Below the pieces are notes generated by a model, which saw only the letters and a list, made by a program, of their open reading frames with translations, was not told where the DNA came from and did not search any database. From Halomicrobium mukohataei DSM 12286 (lineage in GTDB: Archaea; Halobacteriota; Halobacteria; Halobacteriales; Haloarculaceae), in NCBI RefSeq assembly GCF_000023965.1, contig NC_013202.1, positions 1,050,001 to 1,082,000 of the forward strand: a stretch of 32,000 nt of DNA, written 5' to 3'. Shown here piece by piece: positions 5,131-21,768 of this stretch. A program made the position numbers and the translations under genes. Position 1 is the stretch's first letter. Each line of letters opens with the position of its first letter.

Positions 5131-5298
5131 GACCGCGTTTCGCGGCTCTGGGTGGCCTCCGAGCGAGCCGGCCGCCCGACCCGCTGCTCATACTGCCGGC
5201 TGTAACTTCGTGAAGGTCTTCGCTACCCCGGGGTGGTGAAATCGCTCACAGATTTACAGCCGGTAGTCTCAGTTGCTGTAACGTCACAGCCCGCAGCG

Positions 5299-6871: not shown

Positions 6872-8001
6872 TCGTCGCCGGCTCCCTGGGCCGTCGCCGC
6901 GTCGCCGCCCTCGCCCGCTCGCTTGGCTTGCTCGATGAGGTCTGCTCCACCCTGTTCCGCCAGATCGGCGGCGAACGCTCGCGCGTCGTCGACGTGGCGA
7001 TCCGCCGAGAGGTCACGCGTGGCGGCGACCTCCCGCTCGCCCGCCTGGTCGAGGACGCGCACGGTCGTCCGGATCACGCTGCCCTGCAAGATCGCGTGGA
7101 CGCCCAGCGGTGCGACACACCCCCCGCCCAGCTCGTCGAGGACGGTCCGCTCGACGGTCGTCTCCGCCCGCGAGCGCGGGTGGTCGAGGGCGTCGTTGAG
7201 TTCCCGTGCGAACTCGTCGTCGGTCGCGGTGACCGCCAGCGCCCCCTGGCCGGGCGCGGGGACGAACGTCCCGGTCGGGAGCGACTGGTACTCGACGTGG
7301 TGGAGCAGTCCGGCCCGTTCCAGGCCCGCGCGAGCGAGGACGACGGCGTCGTACGCCGTCTCGACCTCGCGGCCCAGCGCCTGCCGTTCGATCTCGGTGA
7401 GCCCGTCGAACCACGTCTCTACGTCCTGCTCGTACGGGAATTCGTACTCCTCGTCGTCGACCTTCTCTTTTTGCTCTTTCTCGGCCTCGCTGCGCTCCTC
7501 GTGTTCGGACTGGAGGGTCGGCGCGAGCAGCTTCTCGATGCGCGTGTCGACGTTGCCACGGAGCGGTTGCACGTCGAGATCCGGTCGCTCGGCCAGCAGC
7601 TGGGCCTTTCGACGGAGGCTCGACGTGCCGACGGTCGCGCCGTCGGGCAGCTCATCGACGGTGGCTCCGTCCGGCGTCACCAGCACGTCGTCGGGTGATT
7701 CCCGCTGGGGCACGCCAGCGACGACCAGCTCCTCGGGCTGTTCGGTCGGCACGTCTTTCATCGAGTGGACGGCGGCGTCGACCTCGCCGTCGACGACCTG
7801 TTCGTCGAGGCTGCGGACGAACGCGCCGGTCTTGCCCAGCCGGTGGATCAGTTCGTCCCGGATCTGATCGCCTGTCGTCTCTACCTCGACGATCTCGACC
7901 GTGTACCCCCGCGCTTCGAGCGTCTCGGTGACGGTCGCGGCCTGACGCAGGGCCAGGTCCGAGCCCCGCGTCGCCAGTCGCACCGTCGTCGCTGTAGTCA
8001 T
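6868..8001 (-). CDS. hemC: hydroxymethylbilane synthase (porphobilinogen deaminase) with an acidic insertion
   Basis: RLATRGSDLALRQA, HSMKDVPT, GTSSLRRKAQL and LRGNVDTRIEKL are present. An acidic insert of about 55 aa precedes YDAVVLARAGL. Confidence 0.9.
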   Translation of the reverse strand: MTTATTVRLATRGSDLALRQAATVTETLEARGYTVEIVEVETTGDQIRDELIHRLGKTGAFVRSLDEQVVDGEVDAAVHSMKDVPTEQPEELVVAGVPQRESPDDVLVTPDGATVDELPDGATVGTSSLRRKAQLLAERPDLDVQPLRGNVDTRIEKLLAPTLQSEHEERSEAEKEQKEKVDDEEYEFPYEQDVETWFDGLTEIERQALGREVETAYDAVVLARAGLERAGLLHHVEYQSLPTGTFVPAPGQGALAVTATDDEFARELNDALDHPRSRAETTVERTVLDELGGGCVAPLGVHAILQGSVIRTTVRVLDQAGEREVAATRDLSADRHVDDARAFAADLAEQGGADLIEQAKRAGEGGDAATAQGAGDE

Positions 8002-9653: not shown

Positions 9654-10319
9654 ATGGCCTCGGCGACGTGGAAACGTGACTTCGCGAGCGGACTGATCAT
9701 CCTGCTCCCCCTGTTGGTGACGGTCTACGTACTCGCCTACCTCTACGGCATTCTGGCCTCGTTACCGCTCGCGAACGTCATCACCCCCGAGCGGCTCGCT
9801 CCGCTGCTCAACATTTCGGCGGAACACCAGCTGATGACACAGCTGGTGACGTTCGTCCGCGTGCTCACGACCCTCGCGGTCTTCGTGCTCCTCGTGTTCT
9901 CGATCGGCTATCTGATGCGGACCGCTTTCGGCGACGTGATCGAACAGGCCCTCGACGACATGATGAATCAGGTCCCCGGTCTCCGCGTGGTGTACAACGC
10001 CTCGAAGATGGCCGTCGAGACGGCCGTCTCGGGGGCCGACGAACTCCAGACGCCGGTGAAACTCGAAGTGTGGGACGGGCTGCGGATGACGGCGTTCAAG
10101 ACCGGCCAACAGACCGAGGACGGACGGGACGTGCTCTTCTTGCCGACCGCGCCGAACATCACGACCGGCTACGTCATCGAAGTCGAGCCCGACGCCTACG
10201 AGGAGACCGACGAGCGCGTCGAGGACGCGCTGACTCGGATCCTCTCGGCCGGCTTCGGCGACGCCGAGGAGAATCACACGCAGGTGCCGGCCGGACTCGT
10301 CGACGCCGACGACGACTAG
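9654..10319 (+). CDS. DUF502 domain membrane protein
   Basis: The N-terminus KRDFASGLIILLPLLVTVYVLAYL and the later FLPTAPNITTGY segment match my recollection of the DUF502 pattern. Confidence 0.7.
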   Translation: MASATWKRDFASGLIILLPLLVTVYVLAYLYGILASLPLANVITPERLAPLLNISAEHQLMTQLVTFVRVLTTLAVFVLLVFSIGYLMRTAFGDVIEQALDDMMNQVPGLRVVYNASKMAVETAVSGADELQTPVKLEVWDGLRMTAFKTGQQTEDGRDVLFLPTAPNITTGYVIEVEPDAYEETDERVEDALTRILSAGFGDAEENHTQVPAGLVDADDD

Positions 10320-10458: not shown

Positions 10459-10603
10459 ATGCTCACAGCCATTGTTTGGTCAGTATATACACTCGTTCTT
10501 TCGACAAATCCGCCGTGTAAGAGCGGGAAACAAAGACTTAGGAATCGCTCAAGACAGCGATTTTATGTAGCTCACAAGAGAGAGTGATCGAATATCTCTA
10601 CCG

Positions 10604-10774
10604 TCACCTTGACAAAATCAGAAGTGCCGCTGCAAGAACTAACACACCAATAGTAACATAAAACAACACTTGAGGGCTGGTGATTAGAACTGCAAACAAA
10701 ATGAGGTACCCAATAATGACGTATGCAGAGATTATTTTCCAGTCGCGTGTGATGGCGTCAGCCGAGTGATTCAT
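10604..10774 (-). CDS. small 2-TM membrane protein (56 aa) in an AT-rich patch
   Basis: I chose the ATG at 10774 (MNHSADAITRDWK...) over the TTG start of the track ORF. Two hydrophobic helices are present. Low-GC codon usage is unlike the neighbouring genes. Confidence 0.4.
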   Translation of the reverse strand: MNHSADAITRDWKIISAYVIIGYLILFAVLITSPQVLFYVTIGVLVLAAALLILSR

Positions 10775-10902
10775 CGGTTTAGTAGCTTTCAATCTATGTT
10801 CATTTGTGCCACGGAAATAGATTCGGTTAACTCGCACATCTACCAAACAGCAGATTCTCCGGAGACACTATGAGACGAACCCAAGTATAGCAGCCGTGTC
10901 AC

Positions 10903-11055
10903 TCAAATCAACTCCTGACGAGACGGTGTCTCACGGCGCAGCGCTGACTCCATCAGCGTCGATTCCACGAGGGGGACATCACCCGAGAACTCGATCTCGT
11001 CGTGCCAGATCTGTAGTTGCTTCGTGCGGGTGTCAAACGACTCGCGCCGCCACTC
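10903..11055 (-). pseudogene. orphan 3' gene fragment without a start codon (…EWRRESFDTRTKQLQIWHDEIEFSGDVPLVESTLMESALRRETPSRQELI*)
   Basis: A 50-codon open frame has strong G/C third-position bias typical of haloarchaeal coding DNA. It has no usable start, and its 5' side runs straight into the family 2 palindromic element. Confidence 0.3.
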
Positions 11056-11138
11056 ATACGGATTATTGTAGCGATTTACCGGTGATCGTCTACTCCGTGG
11101 CGACGATCACCGGTAAGCAACTACAATAAACCGTATCA
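11054..11138. repeat. palindromic element, family 2, copy B (85 bp)
   Basis: In ilvE sense it reads TGATACGGTTTATTGTAG..TTACCGGTGATCGTC-loop-GACGATCACCGGTAA..CTACAATAATCCGTATGA. The inner stem is a perfect 15 bp. The outer arms resemble 30471-30556. Confidence 0.75.
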
Positions 11139-12074
11139 GACGTACTTGAACCAGTCGTCGTACTGCTCGGGTGGCTCTTCGAGGATGTCGAAAAACCGCG
11201 TCTGGATCTCGTCGGTGACCGGCCCCTTCGTTCCGGCACCGATCTCGTTGTCGTCGACGCTGCGGATCGGCGTCACCTCGGCGGCGGTGCCGGTGAAGAA
11301 CAGTTCGTCGGCGGCGTACAGCTCGCCCCGCGAGATGGTGGCGTCGTCGTGGACGGTGTAGCCCAGATCCTCGGCGAGGGTAATGACGCTGCGGCGGGTG
11401 ATGCCGTCGAGGATCGACTCGGCCAGCCCGGTCGTGTAGATCTCGCCGTCGCGGACGAGGAAGATGTTCTCGCCCGGCCCCTCGGCGACGTTGCCCTCCT
11501 TGTTGAGGACGATCGCCTCGCCGTAGTCGTTGCCCTTTGCCTCCAGCGAGGCGAGGACGCTGTTGACGTAGGCTCCCGTCGTCTTCGCGCTGGTCGGGAT
11601 CTGGCTGGAGGCGTGCTTGCGCCACGAGGAGATCGCCGTGTCGATACCCTCTTCGAGCGCTTCCTCGCCGAGGTAGGCACCCCACGGCCAGACGCCGATG
11701 GCGGTCTCGACTGGCGACTCGCTCGGGTTGAGCCCCAGCGGGCCGTAGCCGTAGAAGGCGATCGGGCGGATGTAACACGACTCCAGCCCCTCCCGACGGA
11801 TCAGCTCGACGGTCGCCTCGGTGAGTTCTTCCGGCGTGTAGGGAATCTCGATGTCGTAGACCTTCGCCGACTCGTACAGTCGGTCGAGGTGTTCCTCCCA
11901 GCGGAAGATCGCCGGGCCGTCGTCGGTGTCGTAACAGCGCACGCCCTCGAAGACGCCGGTGCCGTAGTGTAGCGCGTGAGTCAGGACGTGGACCTGTGCG
12001 TCCTCGAAGTCGACGAACTCGCCGTCCTGCCAGATCGTCTCGACCCCTTCGAACATCTCCGGGCGCTCGCTCAT
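11136..12074 (-). CDS. ilvE: branched-chain amino acid aminotransferase
   Basis: Class IV aminotransferase fold, with HALHYGTGVFEGVRCY, KTTGAYVNSVLA, EGPGENIF and FFTGTAAEVTPI. I chose the ATG at 12074 (MSERPEMF). The stop TGA is the first triplet of the family 2 element. Confidence 0.9.
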   Translation of the reverse strand: MSERPEMFEGVETIWQDGEFVDFEDAQVHVLTHALHYGTGVFEGVRCYDTDDGPAIFRWEEHLDRLYESAKVYDIEIPYTPEELTEATVELIRREGLESCYIRPIAFYGYGPLGLNPSESPVETAIGVWPWGAYLGEEALEEGIDTAISSWRKHASSQIPTSAKTTGAYVNSVLASLEAKGNDYGEAIVLNKEGNVAEGPGENIFLVRDGEIYTTGLAESILDGITRRSVITLAEDLGYTVHDDATISRGELYAADELFFTGTAAEVTPIRSVDDNEIGAGTKGPVTDEIQTRFFDILEEPPEQYDDWFKYV

Positions 12075-12229
12075 CGTGCCCACCCCTCGCGTGTGGCGTG
12101 GCGATCACAGCACTGTCCGCAACCAGTGTCCTCGAAGTGCATACCAGGGCATTGCGGCCCATCGTTAAGAGTGTTGACGATGTACGAGTCGATCTGACAC
12201 ACCGCGAGAACGTTCGGCGAGAGCGCCGG

Positions 12230-12289
12230 TTACGCGAGTCGCTCGACCAGCGCGCTGTCCTCGACGTAGGCCAGTCCCTCGCGGTCGGC
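12230..12289 (-). pseudogene. diverged duplicate of the ribB 3' end ([19 protein letters not shown])
   Basis: It aligns codon for codon with the last 20 codons of ribB at 13709-13768 (48/60 nt by my count). The two share an identical 16-mer, CCTCGACGTAGGCCAG, at 12259-12274 and 13738-13753. Confidence 0.7.
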
Positions 12290-12338
12290 ATTGGTTCTAA
12301 TATCTATAGGGCGAAAATACACTATATAAGAAACCGAT

Positions 12339-12638
12339 TCAGGAGAATATTTTGAGTGCCCACAGTACGGCGGCAATGGTCATGAGAATAGTTCCAATAT
12401 ACCAAATCCATGCTTTCGATAGGATACGGGCCCCATCACTATCGAAAGACGGAATTTTACCTGATTTTCCACCAATTGCGTAAAGCATACCACTTGCTAT
12501 CATTAATATACCCGCAAGTGTCATTCTATTCAATACAAAGTGAAAACGCAAATCAGATTCAACGAGCCCGTCAAGAGTTATAATTGTACCAAGTAATACA
12601 GTAGACAATCCAAATGAAATTTTACCCATTCTTCCCAT
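12339..12638 (-). CDS. small 3-TM membrane protein (99 aa) in the AT-rich cassette
   Basis: ATG at 12638 (or 12629). Three hydrophobic segments and low-GC codon usage. It has its own AT-rich upstream region (ATATTATATTTTT). No family recognised. Confidence 0.6.
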   Translation of the reverse strand: MGRMGKISFGLSTVLLGTIITLDGLVESDLRFHFVLNRMTLAGILMIASGMLYAIGGKSGKIPSFDSDGARILSKAWIWYIGTILMTIAAVLWALKIFS

Positions 12639-12695
12639 ATCTTTTACACTCCTGAATAATACCCAAGAACCATATTATATTTTTGGCAAATATAA

Positions 12696-13526
12696 TCAAC
12701 CGCAGAGATCTTCCGCGTACTCTTCTTTGATACAGGCGTTAACTGTATCTTTACAGCCCAAACAATCTACGTTACCCAATAGACCCTGGGCGATCAAAGC
12801 GAGTACACACGCGTAGCATGCTGGATTATACCAGCTGGGAACTAATTTACAGCCACTACAACCAACGCCTGTGGCAGCGATACTAGTAATCCGACCCAAG
12901 CATTCTCTGGACGGAGAGCAATTCACCCCAGTTTCAATACGGCAAGTATCACATTCACCTTCAGGAGGGTCATACCAGACTTCATTACCAACACCTTGCG
13001 TACGCAACGTATTGATACTGGTCGAATCAGTCTTGACAATGTCGCCGTCAACATAATATCGTTCAGACTGGAGTGTTGAACCAGTAGACACAATGTTGTA
13101 ACCTGCTACCGTGGGTTCGTTTTCGTTTACTTCTTCTGGATAAGTATCTAATTGATCTATCCCATTATCGAGAATGAATTTTTCTGTCTCGTCTGTATCT
13201 TCGTAAACTGCTGACACGACAACCCTCTCTTCTCCATTTTCTTCGGTTACTCGTGTTGCACTCGCAGATTGCATCGTAACACTTCGTTTACCACCCTCAG
13301 CCGAATCAACAACCATCTCACGCCAGATCTTTCTCCACTCTCTACCAGTTCGCGCCCTTTGTATGGCCTCCCACTTTTCCCAACCCGATAGCTCCACCAC
13401 GTCCATACCTGATAGGTTCTCTGATACTTCTTGGGCAGTGACAGTGCCGGCTGAAACTGTCGTTAAACTGGCTGTACCGAGTGATTTGAGTGCCTTTCTT
13501 CTGGATATTTTATTCTCTTCGGGCAT
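12696..13526 (-). CDS. halocin C8-type bacteriocin precursor (Tat signal, long pro-region, Cys-rich C-terminal domain)
   Basis: I chose the ATG at 13526 (MPEENKISRRKALKSLG.. has a twin-arginine motif) over the TTG track start. The C-terminal ~86 aa contain 12 Cys, including GCSGCK, and end in ...CIKEEYAEDLCG. This resembles my recollection of HalC8 (GCSACK ... ACNRAGLC). The gene is AT-rich. Confidence 0.7.
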   Translation of the reverse strand: MPEENKISRRKALKSLGTASLTTVSAGTVTAQEVSENLSGMDVVELSGWEKWEAIQRARTGREWRKIWREMVVDSAEGGKRSVTMQSASATRVTEENGEERVVVSAVYEDTDETEKFILDNGIDQLDTYPEEVNENEPTVAGYNIVSTGSTLQSERYYVDGDIVKTDSTSINTLRTQGVGNEVWYDPPEGECDTCRIETGVNCSPSRECLGRITSIAATGVGCSGCKLVPSWYNPACYACVLALIAQGLLGNVDCLGCKDTVNACIKEEYAEDLCG

Positions 13527-13708
13527 CGAGTTACTATATATCTCCAAGTAAAAAAAGCTTTCATATTTCAAATATTTAATATTAGATCTACAAGATGTTT
13601 TTAAATAGTTGGAGAATCGCTAATAATCTCCCCTGACGACATGATATGAGTCGTTCATACGTCCTGCGCAGTATATGAGAGAAAAAAATCAACGCATTTT
13701 GTAGATTT

Positions 13709-14377
13709 TCACATCAGCCGTTCGACGAGAGCGCTCCCCTCGACGTAGGCCAGCCCCTCGCGCTCGGCGTAGGCTCGCGCCGCCGCCGGCGTCAGTGCGC
13801 CGCCGGTCTCGTCGTCGAGCATCTCACAGACCACGACTGCCGGGGGCTGGTCGGCCGCCGCGGCGACGGCCAGCCCGAGTTCGGTGTGTCCCAGCCGGTC
13901 CGAGAGCAGTCCGGGCGCACCGCGCAGCAGCGTCACGTGGCCCGGCGACCGGAACTGTTCGGCGAAGGTCGTTCCGTCGGGCTCGCTCGCGGCCCCTGCG
14001 AGTTCGGTGATCGTCAGCGACCGGTCCTCGTCGGTGATGCCGGTGTGGGTGTCGCGGTGGTTGACCGTCAGCGAGAACGACGAGCGTTCGTCGTACCCCA
14101 GTTCGTGATCGGCGGCACTGGGGTGATCGAGCGACTCCTGCATGAACGGCAGGTCGAACGAATGGGCCACCGAATCCGAGAGCGCGACACAGACCAGTCC
14201 GCCGGCGTCGTTGCGCAGTCGGGCGACGGCGTCGGGCGTCACTGCGCCGGCCGGATACACCAGATCGACCTCGCCCTCGCGATCGGCCGCGTCGTGGATC
14301 AGGATCGGCTGGCCGCGGCCAAAGGCCGCGATGGCGTCGTCGGCACCCGTCGCTGCCTGCTCACTGCTCCGAGACAT
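13709..14377 (-). CDS. ribB: 3,4-dihydroxy-2-butanone-4-phosphate synthase
   Basis: [32 protein letters not shown] and RSPGHV are the DHBP synthase signatures. It overlaps the ribK 3' end by 17 nt. Confidence 0.9.
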
Positions 14378-15059
14378 GGACAGTCACCTCGTCACCGTCG
14401 GCCAGGCCGACCACGTCGCGGAGTTTCTCCGGGGCGATCACTTCCAGCTGGCTCTCTCCGTGGTGGGTTCGCTCGGGGGCGATGACGTGGGCGGGCTCGT
14501 ACTCGCTGTCCCCGGCGACGACGGAGGCCGGATAGCAGTACGCCGGGCCGTACGTTCGCTCGTCGTCCTCCCAGCCCTCGATCGTGACGGGCTCGAAGGC
14601 GCTCAGCCGAGCGCGCTTGCGGACGCTCTCGTCGACGAGGTCGACGTTGAGCGTCCCGGCGAAGGGCTCGTAGCCGAGCTTGTCGATGAACTGCTCCATG
14701 TACCCTGGCAGCGTGATGTAGTGTCGCCCCTCGCCCATGCCGGAGGTGACGATCCCGCCCAGATCGACGCCGACGGCTCCCTCGAAGATCCGTCGGTAGT
14801 CGGCGTACTCTCGCTGGAGAGCCCGCTCGCCGACCTCGCTGATCTGGATGAGCTGTCCGTCGCCGACGATGTCCCGATCGATCATCTCCGCTTCCTCCAG
14901 CCGCTGGAGCCGCCGCGAGGCGGTCTGGTTGGAGGCGTCCAGCCGGTCGGCGAGCGCCGAACAGGACTCCTTTCGCTCGCCTTCGATCGCGCCGTCGAGG
15001 GCCAGCAACTTCAGCGTCGCCAGCTCGTCGTGGCCGACGGCCCGCGTTGTCTCTGCCAT
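14361..15059 (-). CDS. ribK: CTP-dependent riboflavin kinase fused to an N-terminal winged-HTH domain (RbkR-like)
   Basis: The C-terminal half ([23 protein letters not shown]...GTLNVDL...YCYPA) matches the archaeal MJ0056-type kinase. The N-terminal ~90 aa look like a MarR/ArsR-like wHTH. ATG at 15059. Confidence 0.85.
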
Positions 15060-15093
15060 GCACACGAGTTGGCACTATCGCGGGAAAAGGATA

Positions 15094-15110
15094 ACGAATG
15101 TGTCATCCGT
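15094..15110. promoter_or_regulatory. imperfect 7-3-7 palindrome ACGAATG-TGT-CATCCGT upstream of ribK (candidate operator)
   Basis: It lies 35-50 nt upstream of the ribK ATG, next to the AT-rich CGTTATCC stretch. One mismatch in the palindrome. Confidence 0.25.
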
Positions 15111-15226
15111 CACAGTTCTGGAACGGGCGGCAACGGGACTGGCGTTGTCCTCGCTCGTTCCCGGTAGCCACTTGCCCGTCGAGTCGTTACGACCGGTATC
15201 GCCGTCGAGCAGGCGGCCACACTATC

Positions 15227-15499
15227 ATGAACGAAACGGATTCGACCACGTCGGGGCGGCGCGTCGTCGGCTGGGTGTTCGTCGCGGCGCTGGCGCTCGG
15301 CGTGGGCTTCGGTGCCTTCGTCGGTCTCGTGATCAGCAACGACGCCGCCGTCCCGGTCGGTCTCTTCGGCGTCCAGTTTCGCCCTACGCCACTCAACATG
15401 GCCAGCTACGGCGGCGGTGCGGTACTCGCGCTGTCGGGACTCTTCTACGTCGTCATGCGCTACACCCGCCGGTACGACGACGAGATCGAGTCCGTCTGA
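15227..15499 (+). CDS. small 2-TM membrane protein (90 aa)
   Basis: I chose the ATG at 15227 (MNETDSTTSGRR...). Two hydrophobic helices and an acidic C-terminus. Confidence 0.6.
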   Translation: MNETDSTTSGRRVVGWVFVAALALGVGFGAFVGLVISNDAAVPVGLFGVQFRPTPLNMASYGGGAVLALSGLFYVVMRYTRRYDDEIESV

Positions 15500-15552
15500 T
15501 CGCCGCTGTCGCCGAGCGCGTCCGACCCGGCACGAGCGGAGCGAGTGCCGTT

Positions 15553-15599
15553 CACCCCGAGCGCCAGCAGCGCTCGGGGTGTGTTTTCGCCCACTTTTT
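15553..15599 (+). terminator. perfect 12-bp hairpin followed by T-runs
   Basis: CACCCCGAGCGC-CAGCA-GCGCTCGGGGTG (15553-15581) is followed by TTTT (15583-15586) and TTTTT (15595-15599), between convergent genes. Confidence 0.5.
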
Positions 15600-15605
15600 G
15601 CGATC

Positions 15606-15626
15606 GGGGTCGCCGTCGGCGACCCC
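15606..15626 (-). terminator. 9-bp hairpin GGGGTCGCC-GTC-GGCGACCCC downstream of the DUF5789-like gene
   Basis: A perfect stem lies 14 nt after the stop of the minus-strand gene. A-runs on the plus strand give T-runs on the minus strand further downstream. Confidence 0.3.
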
Positions 15627-15639
15627 CGCGGTACACGGT

Positions 15640-15927
15640 CTAGAAGGAGACCTGGTCCGGGCCGTCCTCGCCCATCGCGATCGGATCGCGGTCGGAGTAG
15701 CCCTTTCGACCGATGCCCTTCTGACTGACGGCGCTGTAGGCCGCCAGTCTGGCCTCGTTCTCGGTGTCGTAGGTCTCCTCGGTCAGGCGGCCCAGAACGT
15801 CGGCAATCGTCTCCGAGCCGTTGGGCAACTCCAGGGTGAGGTGGCCGTGGGCCTCGATCAGATCGGTCGTCGTCGCGGGGTAGCTCTGTGCCGTGAACAT
15901 CTCGTCTGCGCTGTCGAACAGTCGCAT
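15640..15927 (-). CDS. small acidic protein, DUF5789-like
   Basis: 95 aa. YPATTTDLIEAHG...LELPNGSETIADVLGRL...GRKGYSDRDP matches my recollection of this haloarchaeal family. The family name is from memory. Confidence 0.65.
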   Translation of the reverse strand: MRLFDSADEMFTAQSYPATTTDLIEAHGHLTLELPNGSETIADVLGRLTEETYDTENEARLAAYSAVSQKGIGRKGYSDRDPIAMGEDGPDQVSF

Positions 15928-15950
15928 GGCTCTGGAAAGTTAATGAACGA

Positions 15951-15957
15951 TAATAAA
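15951..15957 (-). promoter_or_regulatory. TATA-like box (TTTATTA on the minus strand) for the DUF5789-like gene
   Basis: It lies 24-30 nt upstream of the ATG at 15927, within the AT-rich divergent intergenic region 15928-16044. Confidence 0.4.
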
Positions 15958-16044
15958 CCTTCATTATTAATAATTAATACACTCCTTAATGTGTATAAGG
16001 GCCACGACCCGAAGTGGCTTGGGCTCCGGCGGCCAGGCTCCGGT

Positions 16045-16830
16045 ATGACTGTCGCGGACCTCCACGTCCACACGCAGCGCTCGGACGGGACGCTGTCCCT
16101 CGACGAGGTGCCGGCGGCCGCACGGCGCGGCGGCCTCGACGCCGTCGCGGTGACCGACCACGACCGGCTCTCGCCCGACCTCGACGCCCCCGTGACGACA
16201 CGCGAGGGGATCACGGTCGTCCACGGGATCGAGCTCCGGGTCGAGGCCGGCCAGCAGCGTCTCGACCTGCTCGGCTACGGCGTCTCGCCGACGGACGCGC
16301 TGGTCGCCGAGTGCGAGCGCATCCAGCGAAACCGGGCCGAGCGCGGGGCGGCCATCGTCGACTGCGTCGAGGAGCGACTGTCCGTTTCGCTGCCGATCGA
16401 ACCGCGGCCCGGACTGGGTCGGCCACACATCGCACGCGCGATCGCGGAAGTCAGCGACTACGACGTCGACGGCGCGTTCGCCCACCTCATCGGCGACGAC
16501 TGTCCGTGTTACGTCTCCCGCGAAGTCCCCTCTTTCGAGCGGGGCCGTGAGTTACTGGCCGACGCGTGCGGACTCGTGGGGCTGGCCCATCCGCTGCGCT
16601 ACGACGACCCCGAGAGCGCGCTCGCGCTCTGTGACACGCTCGACGCCGTCGAAGGTCCCTACCCCTACGCCGACGACCCCGACCTGTCTGCCGTCGACCG
16701 GGCCATCGAGCGCCACGACCTGCTGGTGACCGGGGGGAGCGACGCGCACGACGACCGGCTGGGCCTGGCCGGTCTGGACAGCGCTCAGTGGGAGCGCGTC
16801 CGGGACGCCCTGGACGTGTCGCCGGAGTGA
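16045..16830 (+). CDS. PHP-domain metal-dependent phosphoesterase
   Basis: I chose the ATG at 16045. ADLHVHTQRSDG, AVTDHD, HGIEL and GGSDAHD are the PHP motifs. The 399 upstream codons of the track ORF are antisense to ribK. Confidence 0.8.
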   Translation: MTVADLHVHTQRSDGTLSLDEVPAAARRGGLDAVAVTDHDRLSPDLDAPVTTREGITVVHGIELRVEAGQQRLDLLGYGVSPTDALVAECERIQRNRAERGAAIVDCVEERLSVSLPIEPRPGLGRPHIARAIAEVSDYDVDGAFAHLIGDDCPCYVSREVPSFERGRELLADACGLVGLAHPLRYDDPESALALCDTLDAVEGPYPYADDPDLSAVDRAIERHDLLVTGGSDAHDDRLGLAGLDSAQWERVRDALDVSPE

Positions 16831-16875
16831 CCGGCGAACGGAGCATTCAATGTCACAGGGACCCAACCATGTCGT

Positions 16876-17040
16876 ATGCAATGTCACTACTGCGAGAGTG
16901 AAGCGGACATCGCAGTCGAGAAAGACGGTATCTCTGTGGGGGTCTGCAAGACTCACTTCCGCGAGCAACTCGAAGAACTCGAAGAGACCGAGTGGCTCGG
17001 CGATCTCGACGAGGAGCTCGACATCGACCGAACGGAGTGA
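16876..17040 (+). CDS. possible small acidic Cys/His protein (54 aa): MQCHYCESEADIAVEKDGISVGVCKTHFREQLEELEETEWLGDLDEELDIDRTE
   Basis: Not in the ORF track (under 60 aa). It has a CxxC...CxxH pattern, an acidic tail and G/C-biased third positions. The overlapping 175-aa track ORF is Ser/Arg-rich and unlikely to be real. Confidence 0.45.
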   Translation: MQCHYCESEADIAVEKDGISVGVCKTHFREQLEELEETEWLGDLDEELDIDRTE

Positions 17041-17154
17041 TGCGGAACGTCGTCGTCGCGTACCGGTGACCGTCGCCACGGGGGAGACGTTCACCAGTGC
17101 ATTCCGACGACCGTCCGTACGAGGACTTTTTCGGCCGGCAGTCCCAGCCCGTGT

Positions 17155-17634
17155 ATGGAACGGACCAGCATCGACGACGTGGACGCGCGGATCGGTCCCG
17201 CGGCCGTCAAGCGAGCGCTCGGCCCGGCGCTGGAGACGACCGAGGTCGCTCTCAACTACTACGAACTCGCGCCCGGCGACAGCTTCGGCTTCGGCTATCA
17301 CCGCCACAGCGATCAGGAAGAGGTCTTCTACGTCTTTCAGGGGACCGCCACCTTCGAGACCGAGGACGGGCCGGTAGCGGTCGGTCCCGACGAGGTGATC
17401 CGGTTCGCGCCGGGCGAGTGGCAGCTCGGTCGCAACGCGGGCGACGAGCGAGTCGTCGCACTGGCCGTCGGTGCTCCCGAAGCCAGCGGCGACACGGAGA
17501 TGGTACGTGCGTGTCCCGACTGTGAGGAGCGAACCGAACAGACCGTCGACTGGGCCGACGACGGCGACGCTCTCGTGACGCTGTGTGTCGACTGCGGTGC
17601 CAGAACCGGGCGATTCGAATATAGTAGCCATTGA
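17155..17634 (+). CDS. cupin-domain protein with a C-terminal zinc ribbon
   Basis: The cupin motifs are GYHRHSDQEEVFYVFQG and IRFAPGEW. CPDCE...CVDCG forms a zinc ribbon. The last four codons (YSSH) and the stop lie inside family 1 element copy 2. Confidence 0.8.
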   Translation: MERTSIDDVDARIGPAAVKRALGPALETTEVALNYYELAPGDSFGFGYHRHSDQEEVFYVFQGTATFETEDGPVAVGPDEVIRFAPGEWQLGRNAGDERVVALAVGAPEASGDTEMVRACPDCEERTEQTVDWADDGDALVTLCVDCGARTGRFEYSSH

Positions 17635-17703
17635 AAATCAATGCACACCCGATCGCACGACAGCAGTGCGATCGGTGTGTCAATCGTTTCAATTGTTACT
17701 ATA
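17620..17703. repeat. palindromic MITE-like element, family 1, copy 2 (84 bp)
   Basis: It is 83/84 identical to 2465-2548. The single G/A difference is in the hairpin loop (2507 vs 17662). Confidence 0.9.
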
Positions 17704-17704
17704 G

Positions 17705-17819
17705 CTACTCGAAGGCGTCGATGCCGGTCAGATCGGCCCCGAGGATCAGCGTGTGGATGTCGTGAGTCCCCTCGTAGGTGTAGACGGTCTCCATGTTTGC
17801 GGCGTGGCACATCGACGGG
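17705..17819 (-). pseudogene. duplicated 3' end of the acyl-CoA dehydrogenase gene (left copy of the 118-bp direct repeat 17702-17819)
   Basis: 107 nt are identical to 19615-19721. Identity then continues to 17819/19732 with 2 mismatches. The fragment encodes ...[33 protein letters not shown] with no upstream gene body. Confidence 0.85.
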
Positions 17820-18057
17820 CTTTCGCCGAGGGGTTCGCGTCACGAACCCAAGGCGAAAAGCGGTCGTGCTTATACCGCCGGCTGTACGTCTGTACAGAAT
17901 TTCGCGACCCCGTGGTCGCGCAGATCTTGAAACAGTTACAGTCGGCAGTATTATTCCACAACTTTGCGGCGCAGCTCTGTCGTTGCGTCCGAGCGTCATT
18001 GCTCGGTGGAATACGAGATCCGAAGTACTTATTTCAACCACTACGCTTCTGGTTGGT

Positions 18058-19488
18058 ATGCCACGCCCGGCCACCGTACTCCTTGTCGTACTCGTTTCCG
18101 TCGGTGGTGTCGGACTGGTGCTCTCGACGAACGTCGTCGCGCTCGACGAGGACGGGATGCCGGCGGTAGCGGAACTGCAGCAAGACACGGATCCACTCGT
18201 CGCCGATACGGACGATGACGGTCTCGACGACGGTTCCGAAGTCGACGAGCTCGGGACGGATCCAGTGGTCGCCGATACGGACGATGATGGTCTCGACGAC
18301 GGTTCTGAAGTCGACGAGCTCGGGACGGATCCAGTGGTCGCCGACACGGACGAGGACGGTCTCGACGACGGTTCCGAAGTCGACGAGCTCGGGACGGATC
18401 CAGTGGTCGCCGACACGGACGGCGACGGTCTCGACGACGGCTCCGAAGTATATACGCACGAGACGGGGCCGATGTCGGCCGATACAGACCACGATGGACT
18501 CAACGACAGTACCGAGATCGAGATCCACGGAACAGACCCCACCTCGGCCGACAGCGACGCCGACGATCTCGAAGACCTCGACGAAATCGAGCTTCACGGC
18601 ACAGATCCTGCGGCAGCCGACACGGACGGGGACGGCCTCGACGACGGTGCCGAAGTGTACCAGCACCGAACTGGCACGACGACAGCTGACACGGACGGTG
18701 ACGGTCTCGACGACGGCACAGAGATCGAAGTCCACGGTACGGATCCCACGGCAGCCGACACGGACGGAGACGGCCTCGAAGACGCTGCCGAAATCGAGAT
18801 TCATGACACGGACCCCCTACAGGCCGACATGGACGGGGACGGTCTCAAGGACGGTGACGAAGTCGACCACGACGCGCTTGACGAGGCAGATCCATTCCGT
18901 ATGGATATTTTCGTCGAGGTAGACTACGTCGAGGGATACAAACCGCCGACGCGATCTCTGGAGATGGTCAGGGAAGCGTACGCGGCGGCACCGATATCGA
19001 ACCCGGACAGTTCAACTGGTATTCGACTCCACATCAGTTACGGCGAGGCGATCGATACTGACGGTCGCGTTAGTCTCGACGAGCTGCGGCAACGTTACAC
19101 GCCCGTATACTTCGATCACGAAGACGACGGTTACCACTACGGCATCGCGGTCGGCGACGCTCGGCACGACGCCCGCTCCGTCGCTGGGGTAACCCAAGGC
19201 TGGGGCGACAACAGACCATTTCTCTTCGAGACGGCCCGAGACGACAGTGACCAGACGCTACCCGACGACTCCATCGCGAGTACATTCATGCACGAACTGG
19301 GCCACTCGAACGGGATCCGACCGAACGACTACGAGGGCGTCGACTCGAAGGCTGTCAGTACAGACCGCTACGAAAGTGCGATGAACTACAACGCTCCGAA
19401 TGGGTACGTGGGCTACAACGACGGAGTGCCGTTCGACGACTGGGACCACATCGAGCACCACCTCCACACGCCGGACGTACGAGACTGA
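18058..19488 (+). CDS. secreted protein with 10 thrombospondin-type-3-like calcium-binding repeats and a C-terminal metzincin-like zinc peptidase domain
   Basis: I chose the ATG at 18058 (MPRPATVLLVVLVSVGGVGLVL is a signal/anchor). There are ten DxDxDGLxDxxE units. HELGH lies at 19291-19305 and a Met-turn-like SAMNY at 19375-19389. The track ORF's upstream 139 codons start inside the palindromic element. Confidence 0.75.
   Translation: MPRPATVLLVVLVSVGGVGLVLSTNVVALDEDGMPAVAELQQDTDPLVADTDDDGLDDGSEVDELGTDPVVADTDDDGLDDGSEVDELGTDPVVADTDEDGLDDGSEVDELGTDPVVADTDGDGLDDGSEVYTHETGPMSADTDHDGLNDSTEIEIHGTDPTSADSDADDLEDLDEIELHGTDPAAADTDGDGLDDGAEVYQHRTGTTTADTDGDGLDDGTEIEVHGTDPTAADTDGDGLEDAAEIEIHDTDPLQADMDGDGLKDGDEVDHDALDEADPFRMDIFVEVDYVEGYKPPTRSLEMVREAYAAAPISNPDSSTGIRLHISYGEAIDTDGRVSLDELRQRYTPVYFDHEDDGYHYGIAVGDARHDARSVAGVTQGWGDNRPFLFETARDDSDQTLPDDSIASTFMHELGHSNGIRPNDYEGVDSKAVSTDRYESAMNYNAPNGYVGYNDGVPFDDWDHIEHHLHTPDVRD
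18190..18465 (+). repeat. four tandem 69-bp (23-codon) repeats, about 94% identical, within the TSP3 region
   Basis: The units are 18190-18258, 18259-18327, 18328-18396 and 18397-18465 (the last diverges at its end). Neighbouring full units differ at 4/69 positions. More diverged units continue to about 18870. Confidence 0.9.
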
Positions 19489-19614
19489 TACTGTCGACTG
19501 TCACCGCCTCAACCCGCATCTCCGGAGACAGTAGTCGCCACATGTCACTGCACAGCCAGCGGTGTATGTCGTCGCGTTTCGTTGTGTGAGAACGCAGTCC
19601 GCTCGCGATTCGAG

Positions 19615-19732
19615 TAGCTACTCGAAGGCGTCGATGCCGGTCAGATCGGCCCCGAGGATCAGCGTGTGGATGTCGTGAGTCCCCTCGTAGGTGTAGACGG
19701 TCTCCATGTTTGCGGCGTGGCGCATCGGCGGG
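19615..19732. repeat. right copy of the 118-bp direct repeat (functional 3' end of the acyl-CoA dehydrogenase gene)
   Basis: See 17702-17819. The offset between copies is 1913 bp. Confidence 0.9.
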
Positions 19733-20844
19733 TAGTCGGTCGTGATCCCGTTGCCCCCCAGCATCTCGCGGGCGGTCTGTGCGACCTCGCGGGCCATCCG
19801 GACGTTGTTGCGCTTGGCCATCGACACCTGCTGGGGGCGCAGATCGCCGCGTGCTTTCAGCGTCGCCAGCCTGTCGGCGAGCAGCTGTGCGGTCGTAATG
19901 CGGGTCGCCATCTCGGCGAGCTTCTCCTGTTGGAGCTGGAAGCGGGCGATCGGGCCGCCGAACTGCTCGCGGTCGGTCGCGTACTCGCGGGCCGCCTCGA
20001 AGCAGTCTCGGGCGGCCCCGACCGCGCCCCACGCGATGCCGTAGCGTGCTTCGGTGAGACAGGACAGCGGCCCTTTCATCCCCTCGACGCCGGGCAGGAG
20101 GGCGTCCTCTGGCACCCACGCGTCCCGGAGGTGGATCTCGCCGGTCGAAGAGGCCCGCATCGAGAGCTTCCCGTCGATCTCGCTGGTCTCGACACCGCCA
20201 GACCGGTCGGTCTGGCGAGGCTCGGTCTCGCCTTGCTCCTCCGAGACGCCCTCACTGTCCAGATCGACGAGAACGCCACGAACGGGATCGTCGGTCTCGG
20301 CGTCCCCGTCGTCGATCTTGCACCAGATCACGGCCACGTCGGCGATCGGCGCGTTCGTGATCCACGTCTTCGTTCCCGAGAGCCGATAGCCGTCCCCGTC
20401 GGGCACCGCAGTCGTCTCCATGCTCGCCGGGTCAGAGCCGTGCTCTGGCTCTGTCAGGCCGAAACAGCCGACGGCGTCGCCCGCGGCGAGGTCGGGCAGC
20501 CATCGCTCTCGCTGGGCCTCGCTTCCGAACTCGTGGATCGGATACATCACCAGCGCGCCCTGGACGCTGGCCATCGAGCGCACGCCGGAGTCGCCGGCCT
20601 CCAGTTCCTGCATGAGCAGGCCGTACGAGCGGGGACTCACTCCCGGAAGCGTTCCCCACGACAGCGTCGGCGCGAAGAAGTCCAGTTCGCCCATCGCCTC
20701 GAACAGGTGGTCGGGCGAGGTCCCGGACTCGAACCACTCGCCGATCTCGGGGCGAACGTGCTCGTCGACGAACTCGCGGGCGGTGTCGCGGATCATACGT
20801 TCCTCGCCGTCGAGGTCGCTCTCCAGGTCCAGATAGTCGAGCAT
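19618..20844 (-). CDS. acyl-CoA dehydrogenase, glutaryl-CoA dehydrogenase-like
   Basis: I chose the ATG at 20844 (MLDYLDLESDL...). GCFGLTEPEHGSDPASM, WITNAPIADVAVIW and [13 protein letters not shown] are present. The track's upstream 287 codons are Arg-rich and overlap the next gene. Confidence 0.85.
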   Translation of the reverse strand: MLDYLDLESDLDGEERMIRDTAREFVDEHVRPEIGEWFESGTSPDHLFEAMGELDFFAPTLSWGTLPGVSPRSYGLLMQELEAGDSGVRSMASVQGALVMYPIHEFGSEAQRERWLPDLAAGDAVGCFGLTEPEHGSDPASMETTAVPDGDGYRLSGTKTWITNAPIADVAVIWCKIDDGDAETDDPVRGVLVDLDSEGVSEEQGETEPRQTDRSGGVETSEIDGKLSMRASSTGEIHLRDAWVPEDALLPGVEGMKGPLSCLTEARYGIAWGAVGAARDCFEAAREYATDREQFGGPIARFQLQQEKLAEMATRITTAQLLADRLATLKARGDLRPQQVSMAKRNNVRMAREVAQTAREMLGGNGITTDYPPMRHAANMETVYTYEGTHDIHTLILGADLTGIDAFE

Positions 20845-20957
20845 ACGACGGCTACGCGTGGCGCGGGCAAAAGTGTGGTCCGCGGTGACGAGAGCCGTGG
20901 CGACCGGAGTCGATGGGGCCGATCGCGCTCGTCCACGTTGCCAGTGTGTTGCTGCCG

Positions 20958-21677
20958 TCAGTCGTCTGCGGCCGCGACGCCGCCGGACTCTCCCGTCCCG
21001 GCTCGCCCTCGGAGGTACTGCGTGAAGTTGTCGAAGAGGCGTTTTGCCTCGCAGGCGGCGTCGTAGTTCTCGGACGTGATCCCGTCGAGGACCTGCTGTA
21101 TCCGTTCTTCGGAGAGCTGATCGTCCTTGCCTCGGGTGACCTCGCGGGCCGTCTCGGTGTCGTACTCGGGGTGGAACTGCACCGAGAACACGTCCTCGGT
21201 CTGGAACCCGTGGATGCCGTAGTCGTTGGCGGCGAACTGCTCGGCTCCCGGTGGCAGCTCGACGACGCGGTCGGAGTGGGTCGTAAAGACGGTGAACCGC
21301 TCGTCGACGCCGTCGAGCAGTTCGCTGGTGCCGTCGTGTTCGACGGTGCGATAGCCGATCTCGTACTCGTCCATCGGCTCGACCTCGCCGCCCAGTGCGT
21401 GTGCGAGCAGCTGGTGGCCGAAACAGACGCCCAGGAACGCCACGTCGCGCTCGACCGCGTCGCGGACCCACGAGGTCAGGTCCGCGATCCAGGGCTCCTC
21501 CCAGTAGACGGAGGCGCGGGACCCGGTGAGGAGACAGCCGTCGAACGCGAAGGTGTCTGGCAGTTCGCGTTCGGTCACGTCGTACTCGACGAGGTCGGCG
21601 TCTAGCTCCCGCCGGAAGTTCCGGCGGTTGAGCGCCCCGTCGTGGGCCGCGTTCAGCAAGGCGATCCTGAGGCTCAT
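20958..21677 (-). CDS. class I glutamine amidotransferase-like protein
   Basis: GVCFGHQLLAHALGG is the nucleophile-elbow Cys motif, and FSVQFHPE is the His-Glu region. ATG at 21677. Confidence 0.8.
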   Translation of the reverse strand: MSLRIALLNAAHDGALNRRNFRRELDADLVEYDVTERELPDTFAFDGCLLTGSRASVYWEEPWIADLTSWVRDAVERDVAFLGVCFGHQLLAHALGGEVEPMDEYEIGYRTVEHDGTSELLDGVDERFTVFTTHSDRVVELPPGAEQFAANDYGIHGFQTEDVFSVQFHPEYDTETAREVTRGKDDQLSEERIQQVLDGITSENYDAACEAKRLFDNFTQYLRGRAGTGESGGVAAADD

Positions 21678-21768
21678 CACTCCTATTCAGCGGGTCGAGC
21701 CACAAAAGCGTACAGATACGTGGCCGTATTTGCCGATCTCCGCGACGCCGCTGTCGCGGGTCGGCCGG

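Follow-up and report, generated by a model that had tools for sequence, protein, structure and literature searches.

The 32,000-nt stretch of the Halomicrobium mukohataei DSM 12286 chromosome analysed here (contig NC_013202.1, positions 1,050,001 to 1,082,000; hereafter the window, whose numbering is used throughout) carries two small lineage-specific inserts. Each lies at gene 3' ends and has a duplicated target segment at its borders. Insert I1 is found downstream of ribB (locus 1), and insert I2 between the convergent cupin and acyl-CoA dehydrogenase (acd) genes (locus 2). At both loci the target gene keeps an intact 3' end and an orphan copy of its tail sits at the far border of the insert, in agreement with the preliminary description of this DNA. 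The explanation that we favour, and to which we give about an even chance of being right, is that the inserts result from two separate Campbell-type integrations of small circular DNAs, each of which carried a copy of its target. Each circle would have recombined once with the chromosome through that copy, leaving the flanking genes undamaged and, at the far border, a partial target copy. The target would be a 128-nt unit, U, at locus 2, and the last ~68 nt of ribB, containing an exact core of 16 nt, at locus 1. We infer both the circular intermediate and the enzyme responsible for the crossover.

The closest other species available for comparison was H. katesii DSM 19301 (locus L001), which is 95–97.5% identical to the window at the nucleotide level. 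Metagenomic haloarchaeal contigs, such as L069 and L118, served as further relatives.

Both convergent genes are duplicated around I2

The two acd tails (17702-17819 and 19615-19732) align over 118 nt with 2 mismatches, and the local alignment of the acd tail with its own downstream region outscored 500/500 shuffles. This confirms, at 116/118, the 118-bp duplication at 98% identity that had been described, but the true unit is longer and involves both convergent genes. When an 80-nt element is removed from the left copy, the full duplication is 128 nt long and 125/128 positions are identical. U, which bridges the junction where cupin and acd meet tail to tail, is made up of 10 nt of cupin tail, a stop codon and 115 nt of acd tail; the orphan pieces of cupin and acd each lie across the insert from their parent gene.

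The element in the left copy, el87, is a MITE (miniature inverted-repeat transposable element): it has terminal inverted repeats, a target-site duplication when compared with the empty site, and many dispersed copies. An alignment of seven copies fixed its ends (TAGTAGCC...GTTACTA, with TA on each side). A second copy in the window, at 2465-2551, is 99% identical to the one at 17620-17706; H. katesii has a copy at L001 11570-11656, and el87 was found at 198 places in 50 haloarchaeal plasmid records from many genera. Folding gives a long hairpin (z = -7.2), and Rfam has no match to it. Where el87 lies between convergent genes it supplies both neighbours with their last codons and stop: YSSH in the cupin and panE-like genes, and SYSNN in the LPG_synthase_TM gene.

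Only the left copy of U contains el87; the empty site is seen in L118 and in the right copy. In the cupin gene, GCGATTCGAA is followed by el87 and then by CTACTCGAA, while to the left of the intact acd copy the order is GCGATTCGAG-TAG-CTACTCGAA. The right copy runs 13 nt into the cupin tail and keeps the junction TTCGAG-TAG-CTACTCGAA. The same junction, GGTTCGAG-TAG-CTACTCGAA (TTCGAGTAGCTACTCGAA), is present in the MITE-free L118, where the cupin is 83% identical in amino acids and the acd tail 92% identical in nucleotides. Removal of the MITE and one TA from the left copy predicts a junction (GCGATTCGAA-TA-GCTACTCG) that is identical to the right I2 border at 19/20 positions. Judged from these comparisons, the right copy represents the ancestral MITE-free junction, and the left copy its MITE-interrupted form. 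The cupins themselves fit this pattern: homologues in all other genera are 155 aa long and end in ...GRF[ETDS], and only those of H. mukohataei and H. katesii end in ...GRFEYSSH, with the extension read from el87.

In H. katesii, the order is cupin-MITE-acd with a single 118-nt segment and no insert. The left flank of this segment corresponds to the left flank of the window orphan, and its right flank to the intact acd. The tail-to-tail arrangement of cupin and acd is also found in Halorientalis and other genera, where the gene carried by I2 is missing. The few differences between the copies of U are not scattered. They occur at positions 10, 118 and 124, each at the insert-touching end of its copy, with the two G>A differences of the left acd-tail copy at 17809 and 17815, beside the insert. 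At all three positions H. katesii has the base of the functional copy. Differences at the inner ends are expected under the circle explanation because the inner halves of both copies would have come with the incoming DNA; the circle at locus 2 would have carried a slightly diverged, MITE-free U.

Campbell-type integration is familiar from pop-in gene replacement in Haloferax, in which a circle with a chromosomal segment recombines by one crossover and leaves the segment duplicated on both sides. Laboratory constructs of this kind use several hundred bp of homology. The process fits locus 2. Host homologous recombination can act on a stretch of 128 nt at ~98% identity, so a dedicated recombinase need not be invoked there; the host machinery is enough, either by a pop-in or by taking up a U-insert-U allele that already existed in a close relative.

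Two other features of this locus should be mentioned. A compound hairpin lies exactly at the left I2 end (17820-17862; CTTTCGCC-GA-GGGTTCG-CGTCA-CGAACCC-AA-GGCGAAAAG, z = -3.05). The segment 19489-19604 was considered as a longer cupin pseudogene and rejected: only the last 10 nt and the stop are clearly homologous, and the weak likeness of 'SLCEN...RSRFE' is not significant.

A diverged ribB tail borders I1

At locus 1, the two ribB tails (12237-12297 and 13716-13776) are 82% identical over 61 nt, and 53/68 positions are identical when they are aligned out to the stop codons. The ribB tail aligned with its own downstream region better than 500/500 shuffles. Against the ribB tails of relatives the orphan scores E = 2e-12, with 90.6% identity to H. 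katesii and 88.7% to L069. While the two tails are 82% identical to each other, each is ~91–92% identical to H. katesii. They are thus more distant from one another than from a different species, and the orphan is therefore not a recent in-place duplication. The second tail is a ribB-tail copy from a lineage whose divergence roughly equals that of the species. It should also be noted that the last ~30 nt and stop of the intact ribB (...VERLM) differ from both relatives.

The arms on either side of the 16-nt core were also compared. On the gene-internal side, the intact ribB is identical to H. katesii at 20/21 positions and the orphan at 15/21. This divergence of the orphan argues that its gene-internal arm arrived with the insert. 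This arm, which is the one next to the insert, is identical to the intact ribB at 16/21 positions.

The stop of the orphan keeps the usual distance between ribB and ilvE, lying 146–155 nt upstream of the latter. In a metagenome scan with ribB, 13 loci had the order ribK-ribB-ilvE with a ribB-ilvE gap of ~64–191 nt, so this order is ancestral. The two closest relatives, H. katesii and L069, have a gene for an ~80-aa membrane protein directly after ribB (L069 743-979; L001 about 7261-7500). Neither the window nor more distant haloarchaea have it, which makes it another small variable gene of the ribB slot. In L069, ilvE comes next. In H. katesii the block has moved to another place, and the break lies within ~20 nt of where the window and L069 come together again. 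In the window lineage, I1 and the orphan tail occupy the slot where the relatives hold the different small gene, and with that slot filled there is no clear single-copy, insert-free ribB site. Nucleotide identity between L069 and the window is 86.7% for ribB and 92.8% for ilvE. A comparison of the 47 nt downstream of the orphan ribB stop (12184-12230) with native ribB-downstream DNA gave 77/2000 shuffles, a suggestive value.

These details invite the explanation that the loci have unrelated local histories and share no type of integration. The orphan ribB tail could be the deletion remnant of an older second ribB allele that recombination had brought in, for example, and locus 2 an old duplication that was later given an insert. 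The divergence of the two tails places their split at or before the species split, the closer similarity of ilvE than of ribB to L069 suggests a recombination boundary, and the H. katesii rearrangement breakpoints fall within ~20 nt of the ribB-ilvE place. In addition, both the ribB-ilvE and the cupin-acd slots hold different genes in relatives without duplications. However, the duplicated segments at both loci meet the foreign DNA exactly, on each of its sides, a fit not to be expected of independent events, and the MITE-free junction of the right U lies directly at the insert border. We consider unrelated histories distinctly unlikely.

Returning to integration of a circle, the sequence at locus 1 differs from that at locus 2 in what it requires. 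A short exact core within diverged arms, next to an AT-rich insert, is the usual look of an attP (the attachment site of a circular element) that mimics a gene end. Efficient homologous recombination would need more than a 16-nt exact core in DNA of ~80% identity, as would a pop-in of the Haloferax type. This argues for a site-specific enzyme that was lost or acted from elsewhere. Of the two mechanisms proposed earlier, capture by homologous recombination remains a serious candidate at locus 2 but does not suit the short exact core of locus 1.

In another explanation no circle was involved and recombination was illegitimate or one-sided, by homology-facilitated illegitimate recombination or by microhomology-mediated template switching. 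A linear fragment anchored in the gene tail would have its other end joined illegitimately upstream of the resident tail, duplicating the tail. This route would account for the lack of an attP or circular form, for insert composition that is unlike the host with no mobility genes, and for the loss of a neighbouring gene at locus 1, as often happens in such events. One-sided events usually delete recipient DNA rather than duplicate it, however. At locus 2 the orphan pieces of both convergent genes are symmetrical, as from a reciprocal single crossover, and at locus 1 the ribB-like insert-side arm of the orphan (16/21) implies that the incoming DNA already had a copy of the ribB tail. We regard the one-sided route as unlikely, though less so than unrelated histories.

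I1 and I2 carry genes for predicted secreted proteins

Both inserts are now cargo-only islets. I1 encodes a toxin-like protein that is Cys-rich and Tat-secreted, together with a small membrane protein, and I2 encodes a TSP3-repeat metzincin. The inserts had been called single-function cassettes, which does not hold for I1: it is tightly packed with two genes, encoding proteins of 276 and 99 aa. The 276-aa protein has a twin-arginine signal (Tat-signal models matched) and a Cys-rich C-terminal region of ~85 aa. Its family has 12 representatives among 1.8 billion protein clusters, and 11 Cys are invariant. A bacteriocin-type precursor had been proposed, and the architecture is appropriate: the precursor of halocin C8 is a 283-aa, Tat-secreted protein that releases a 76-aa C-terminal peptide (bioRxiv 10.64898/2026.07.27.741052). 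The 276-aa protein is alike in having a Tat signal and a Cys-rich C-terminus, but homology to halocin C8 is not detectable; neither it nor any of the 12 family members matched the halocin_C8_dom model TIGR04449 at E <= 0.1. The family may be an undescribed archaeocin family. The 99-aa hydrophobic protein had no family match in domain searches and is possibly an immunity or accessory protein.

I2 consists of one gene. Its 476-aa product has an N-terminal hydrophobic anchor or signal, and nine bacterial TSP3 (Ca-binding) repeats of 69 nt (Pfam TSP3_bac). The C-terminal domain contains the sequence HELGHSNG, an HExxHxxG zinc motif that is invariant in the alignment. The AlphaFold2 (AF2) model of this domain has a predicted local distance difference test (pLDDT) score of 87, and a Foldseek search with it retrieved TACE/ADAM, fragilysin and ulilysin at E ~5e-6 (TM 0.5–0.6). 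While the Pfam Reprolysin_3 match was sub-threshold only, the model indicates a metzincin fold, and the earlier reading of a Ca-binding, metallopeptidase-like protein is borne out. Homologues of the cargo proteins are rare, the best metzincin-domain homologue being 55% identical. In the readable contexts of such homologues (L063, L064 and L065), no flanking tail duplication was found.

A dedicated cassette system is not supported by the DNA scanned

As had been reported, neither insert encodes an integrase or transposase. No recombinase or transposase domain was found in any frame of I1 or I2, nor elsewhere in the window. There are no terminal inverted repeats at the insert ends, and the duplications of 68 and 128 nt compare with transposon target duplications of 2–15 bp. 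I1 and I2 thus fail the defining features of a transposon, insertion sequence or MITE. They are not integron cassettes either, as there is no shared attC-type site, no integrase in the window and no array.

The two loci also differ from each other. Their GC contents are 42% and 61% (the window mean is 66%), the repeats are 68 nt at ~80% identity and 128 nt at ~98%, and the cargo orientation and end sequences are different. No end motif or att core is shared between I1 and I2. A self-comparison of the window revealed no further tail duplication, and there was no convincing case in the 221-kb plasmid of H. mukohataei JP60, where direct-repeat pairs were paralogues, internal protein repeats or a CRISPR region; no integrase appears in the incomplete gene table of this plasmid. 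The same thresholds were passed by only five direct-repeat pairs in 1.22 Mb of related haloarchaeal loci, and all were short dispersed palindromic repeats without a coding tail.

The preliminary description had suggested a recurring, trans-mobilised cassette system, in which single cassettes are inserted at gene 3' ends by one recombinase encoded at another genomic site. In favour of this idea, the 32-kb window has two cases at a distance of 4 kb, each with cargo for an exported protein and without a recombinase, and with none in 1.2 Mb of related DNA their local clustering is a little odd. Because the loci differ and no further case was found in the scanned DNA, a dedicated system is not supported. 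A third islet in the window (see below) has no duplication, and neither do the readable homologues of the cargo. We consider such a system very improbable. A more specific version, in which a Halomicrobium recombinase acts in trans on cassettes of 1–2 genes and uses a gene-tail mimic as the att site for insertion into gene 3' ends or tail-to-tail junctions, is if anything more doubtful still. Cassettes moved in this way would be functionally similar to those of an integron, but dispersed and with gene-tail att sites.

We also considered a single complex replacement event covering both loci. We found no version of it that agrees with the equal divergence of all blocks from H. katesii (95–97.5%).

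The sources of the inserts were sought in plasmids, phages and viral contigs at the level of DNA, of protein and of attP-type junction strings. Only generic TSP3-repeat matches were obtained. The attP-type strings expected for the inserts are GAGAGCGCTCCCCTCGACGTAGGCCAGTCCCTCGCGG and CGCGATTCGAGTAG-N105-CATCGACGGGCTTTCGCC.

Points that weigh against integration of circles

Several observations count against our explanation. No circular form, attP junction or related element was found in the plasmids, phages and viral contigs, although absence from databases is weak evidence, and neither site has a known integrase. In the stop-proximal 32 nt at locus 1, the distances of the two tails from H. 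katesii are about the same (23/32 and 24/32), so either the orphan or the intact tail could be the imported one. Loss of the small membrane-protein gene that relatives carry after ribB requires an extra event. At locus 2, the lone copy in H. katesii may have arisen secondarily, by deletion between the repeats, and differences restricted to the repeat ends could equally result from gene conversion. The insertion could also predate both the MITE and the species split, with H. katesii then losing I2 by recombination between the repeats, so that more than one order of events is conceivable. Finally, exact copies of four window proteins were looked up, and all assemblies found were 100% identical over 10 kb; they therefore provide no independent population evidence.

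Features of the window

The coordinates of the genes, inserts and repeats are collected in Table 1. The identities proposed earlier for the ribB product (DHBP synthase) and for acyl-CoA dehydrogenase were upheld by domain searches. There is no tRNA gene in the window.

Table 1. Genes, inserts and duplicated segments at loci 1 and 2 (window coordinates).
Feature	Position	Strand	Basis or remark
ilvE (class IV aminotransferase), ancestral downstream neighbour of ribB	11136..12083	-	Pfam Aminotran_4
Orphan ribB 3' tail, 22 codons and TAA stop (...EGLAYVEDSALVERLA, then stop)	12230..12297	-	Sequence comparison
Exact 16-nt core CCTCGACGTAGGCCAG common to both ribB tails, candidate crossover segment	12259..12274		Second copy at 13738-13753
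Insert I1, 1411 nt	12298..13708	-	41.7% GC; not present in H. katesii or L069
99-aa hydrophobic protein of I1	12339..12638	-	No family match; hydrophobic stretches in translation
276-aa Tat-signal Cys-rich protein of I1	12696..13526	-	Tat-signal models, Cys alignment
ribB, intact (DHBP synthase)	13709..14377	-	Domain search
ribK, DUF5789, PHP and cupin			Gene run between ribB and I2
Cupin gene	17155..17634	+	Last 4 codons and stop (YSSH, stop) from MITE
Left copy of U, cupin-tail part (GCGATTCGAA)	17610..17619	+	
80-nt palindromic MITE el87	17622..17701	.	TA/TA at 17620-21 and 17702-03
Left copy of U, acd-tail part (orphan acd 3' end)	17702..17819	-	Stop at 17705-07
Insert I2, 1785 nt	17820..19604	+	60.7% GC; absent from H. 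katesii
476-aa TSP3-repeat metzincin-like protein of I2	18058..19488	+	Pfam TSP3_bac, AF2, Foldseek
Right copy of U, 128 nt: orphan cupin tail GCGATTCGAG and TAG, then functional acd tail	19605..19732	-	
acd, intact (acyl-CoA dehydrogenase)	19618..20844	-	Domain search

The gaps that received I1 and I2 are general hot spots of gene gain, as the ribB-ilvE and cupin-acd slots carry other genes in other relatives without duplications. These gaps are occupied by genes for a halocyanin-like protein, a His-rich membrane protein and a NikR-like regulator in L079 (8654-11560), by a major facilitator superfamily (MFS) transporter in L089 (8010-9427), and by a 173-aa protein in L117 (1879-2400). Enlarged ribB-ilvE gaps in L070, L079, L089 and L107 were examined as candidates for further cases and rejected, as they contain ordinary genes (copper, nickel, MFS transporter) and no orphan tails. 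A 63-nt direct repeat right after the ribB stop in L072 was rejected as well, being a dispersed short repeat with a third copy nearby. This repeat (5144-5206, 7258-7320 and 9894-9927) starts at the ribB and Lrp/AsnC stops and brackets glnA-lrp. The inverted, partial third copy suggests a dispersed terminator-like repeat rather than a target duplication.

A third lineage-specific islet of low GC content (10487-11052, 48% GC) lies between the convergent DUF502 and ilvE genes and is absent from L069. It contains a possible open reading frame for a small membrane protein (10604-10846, minus strand). Tail alignments found no gene-tail duplication at this islet.

Two other palindromic elements of ~86 nt, at 11053-11139 and 17038-17123, belong to a different family from el87. 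They share 72% identity (hairpin z = -8.4). One of the two overlaps the stop codon of ilvE, its counterpart is just upstream of the cupin gene, and related copies are present in H. katesii.

Only an 8-kb block, from the small membrane-protein gene and ribB to GATase, is common to H. katesii L001 (7251-13772) and the window (13715-21735). The ends of the block are synteny breaks and the window keeps the ancestral neighbours (ilvE and an abhydrolase), indicating that the block moved in H. katesii.

Comparison with known integrative elements

Flanking direct repeats that arise by recombination between an element and its chromosomal site are the standard scar of integrative elements. Such repeats are present at both borders of I1 and I2, while an integrase gene inside is absent. 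A single-copy empty site is seen in H. katesii for locus 2. The hybrid pattern of attL and attR, the two attachment-site junctions of an integrated element, is as predicted at locus 2, where the insert-proximal half of each copy of U would derive from the incoming DNA. At locus 1, the gene-internal arm fits this pattern, and the stop-proximal arms are equidistant.

The nearest parallel is provided by cis-mobilizable elements (CIMEs), a bacterial class that keeps attL and attR and has lost the genes for integration and transfer (PMC5704250). The CIMEs related to streptococcal ICEs (integrative and conjugative elements) and IMEs (integrative and mobilizable elements) resemble the islets described here in occupying the 3' ends of housekeeping genes, carrying cargo only and keeping both att scars. 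They differ in that a CIME is defined by a cognate ICE or IME with the same att specificity, and no such element or integrase is known here. Furthermore, their hosts are bacteria whereas H. mukohataei is an archaeon, and the 128-nt repeat of locus 2 is longer than typical att identity segments. The islets function like this class, although membership is incomplete without a cognate autonomous element. For I1, the sequence comparisons point to a CIME-like decayed element whose site-specific recombinase was lost or acts in trans.

Among archaea, a survey of thaumarchaeal integrated elements found 14/68 in protein genes, at their 3'-distal regions, with the stop codon supplied by the element (PMC6563490). 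Those elements also have flanking direct repeats, an intact target gene and empty sites verified in relatives. However, they are several kb or longer and most have an integrase, whereas the islets of H. mukohataei are 1.4–1.8 kb, contain one or two genes and have none.

Cargo-only satellites of tycheposons in Prochlorococcus are likewise small islands beside partial target copies and lack their own integrase. They differ in using tRNA and related targets and in having known partner elements.

Current views of archaeal mobile elements are unchanged by these data. If our explanation is correct, I1 and I2 would be clear haloarchaeal examples of minimal, integrase-less islets that keep both attachment-site scars, and one of them would be datable relative to a MITE insertion. 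They would provide two concrete sites at which excision or trans-mobilisation could be tested. They would also illustrate a route by which genes for secreted, toxin-like proteins enter haloarchaeal chromosomes while the housekeeping genes at the insertion sites remain undisrupted.

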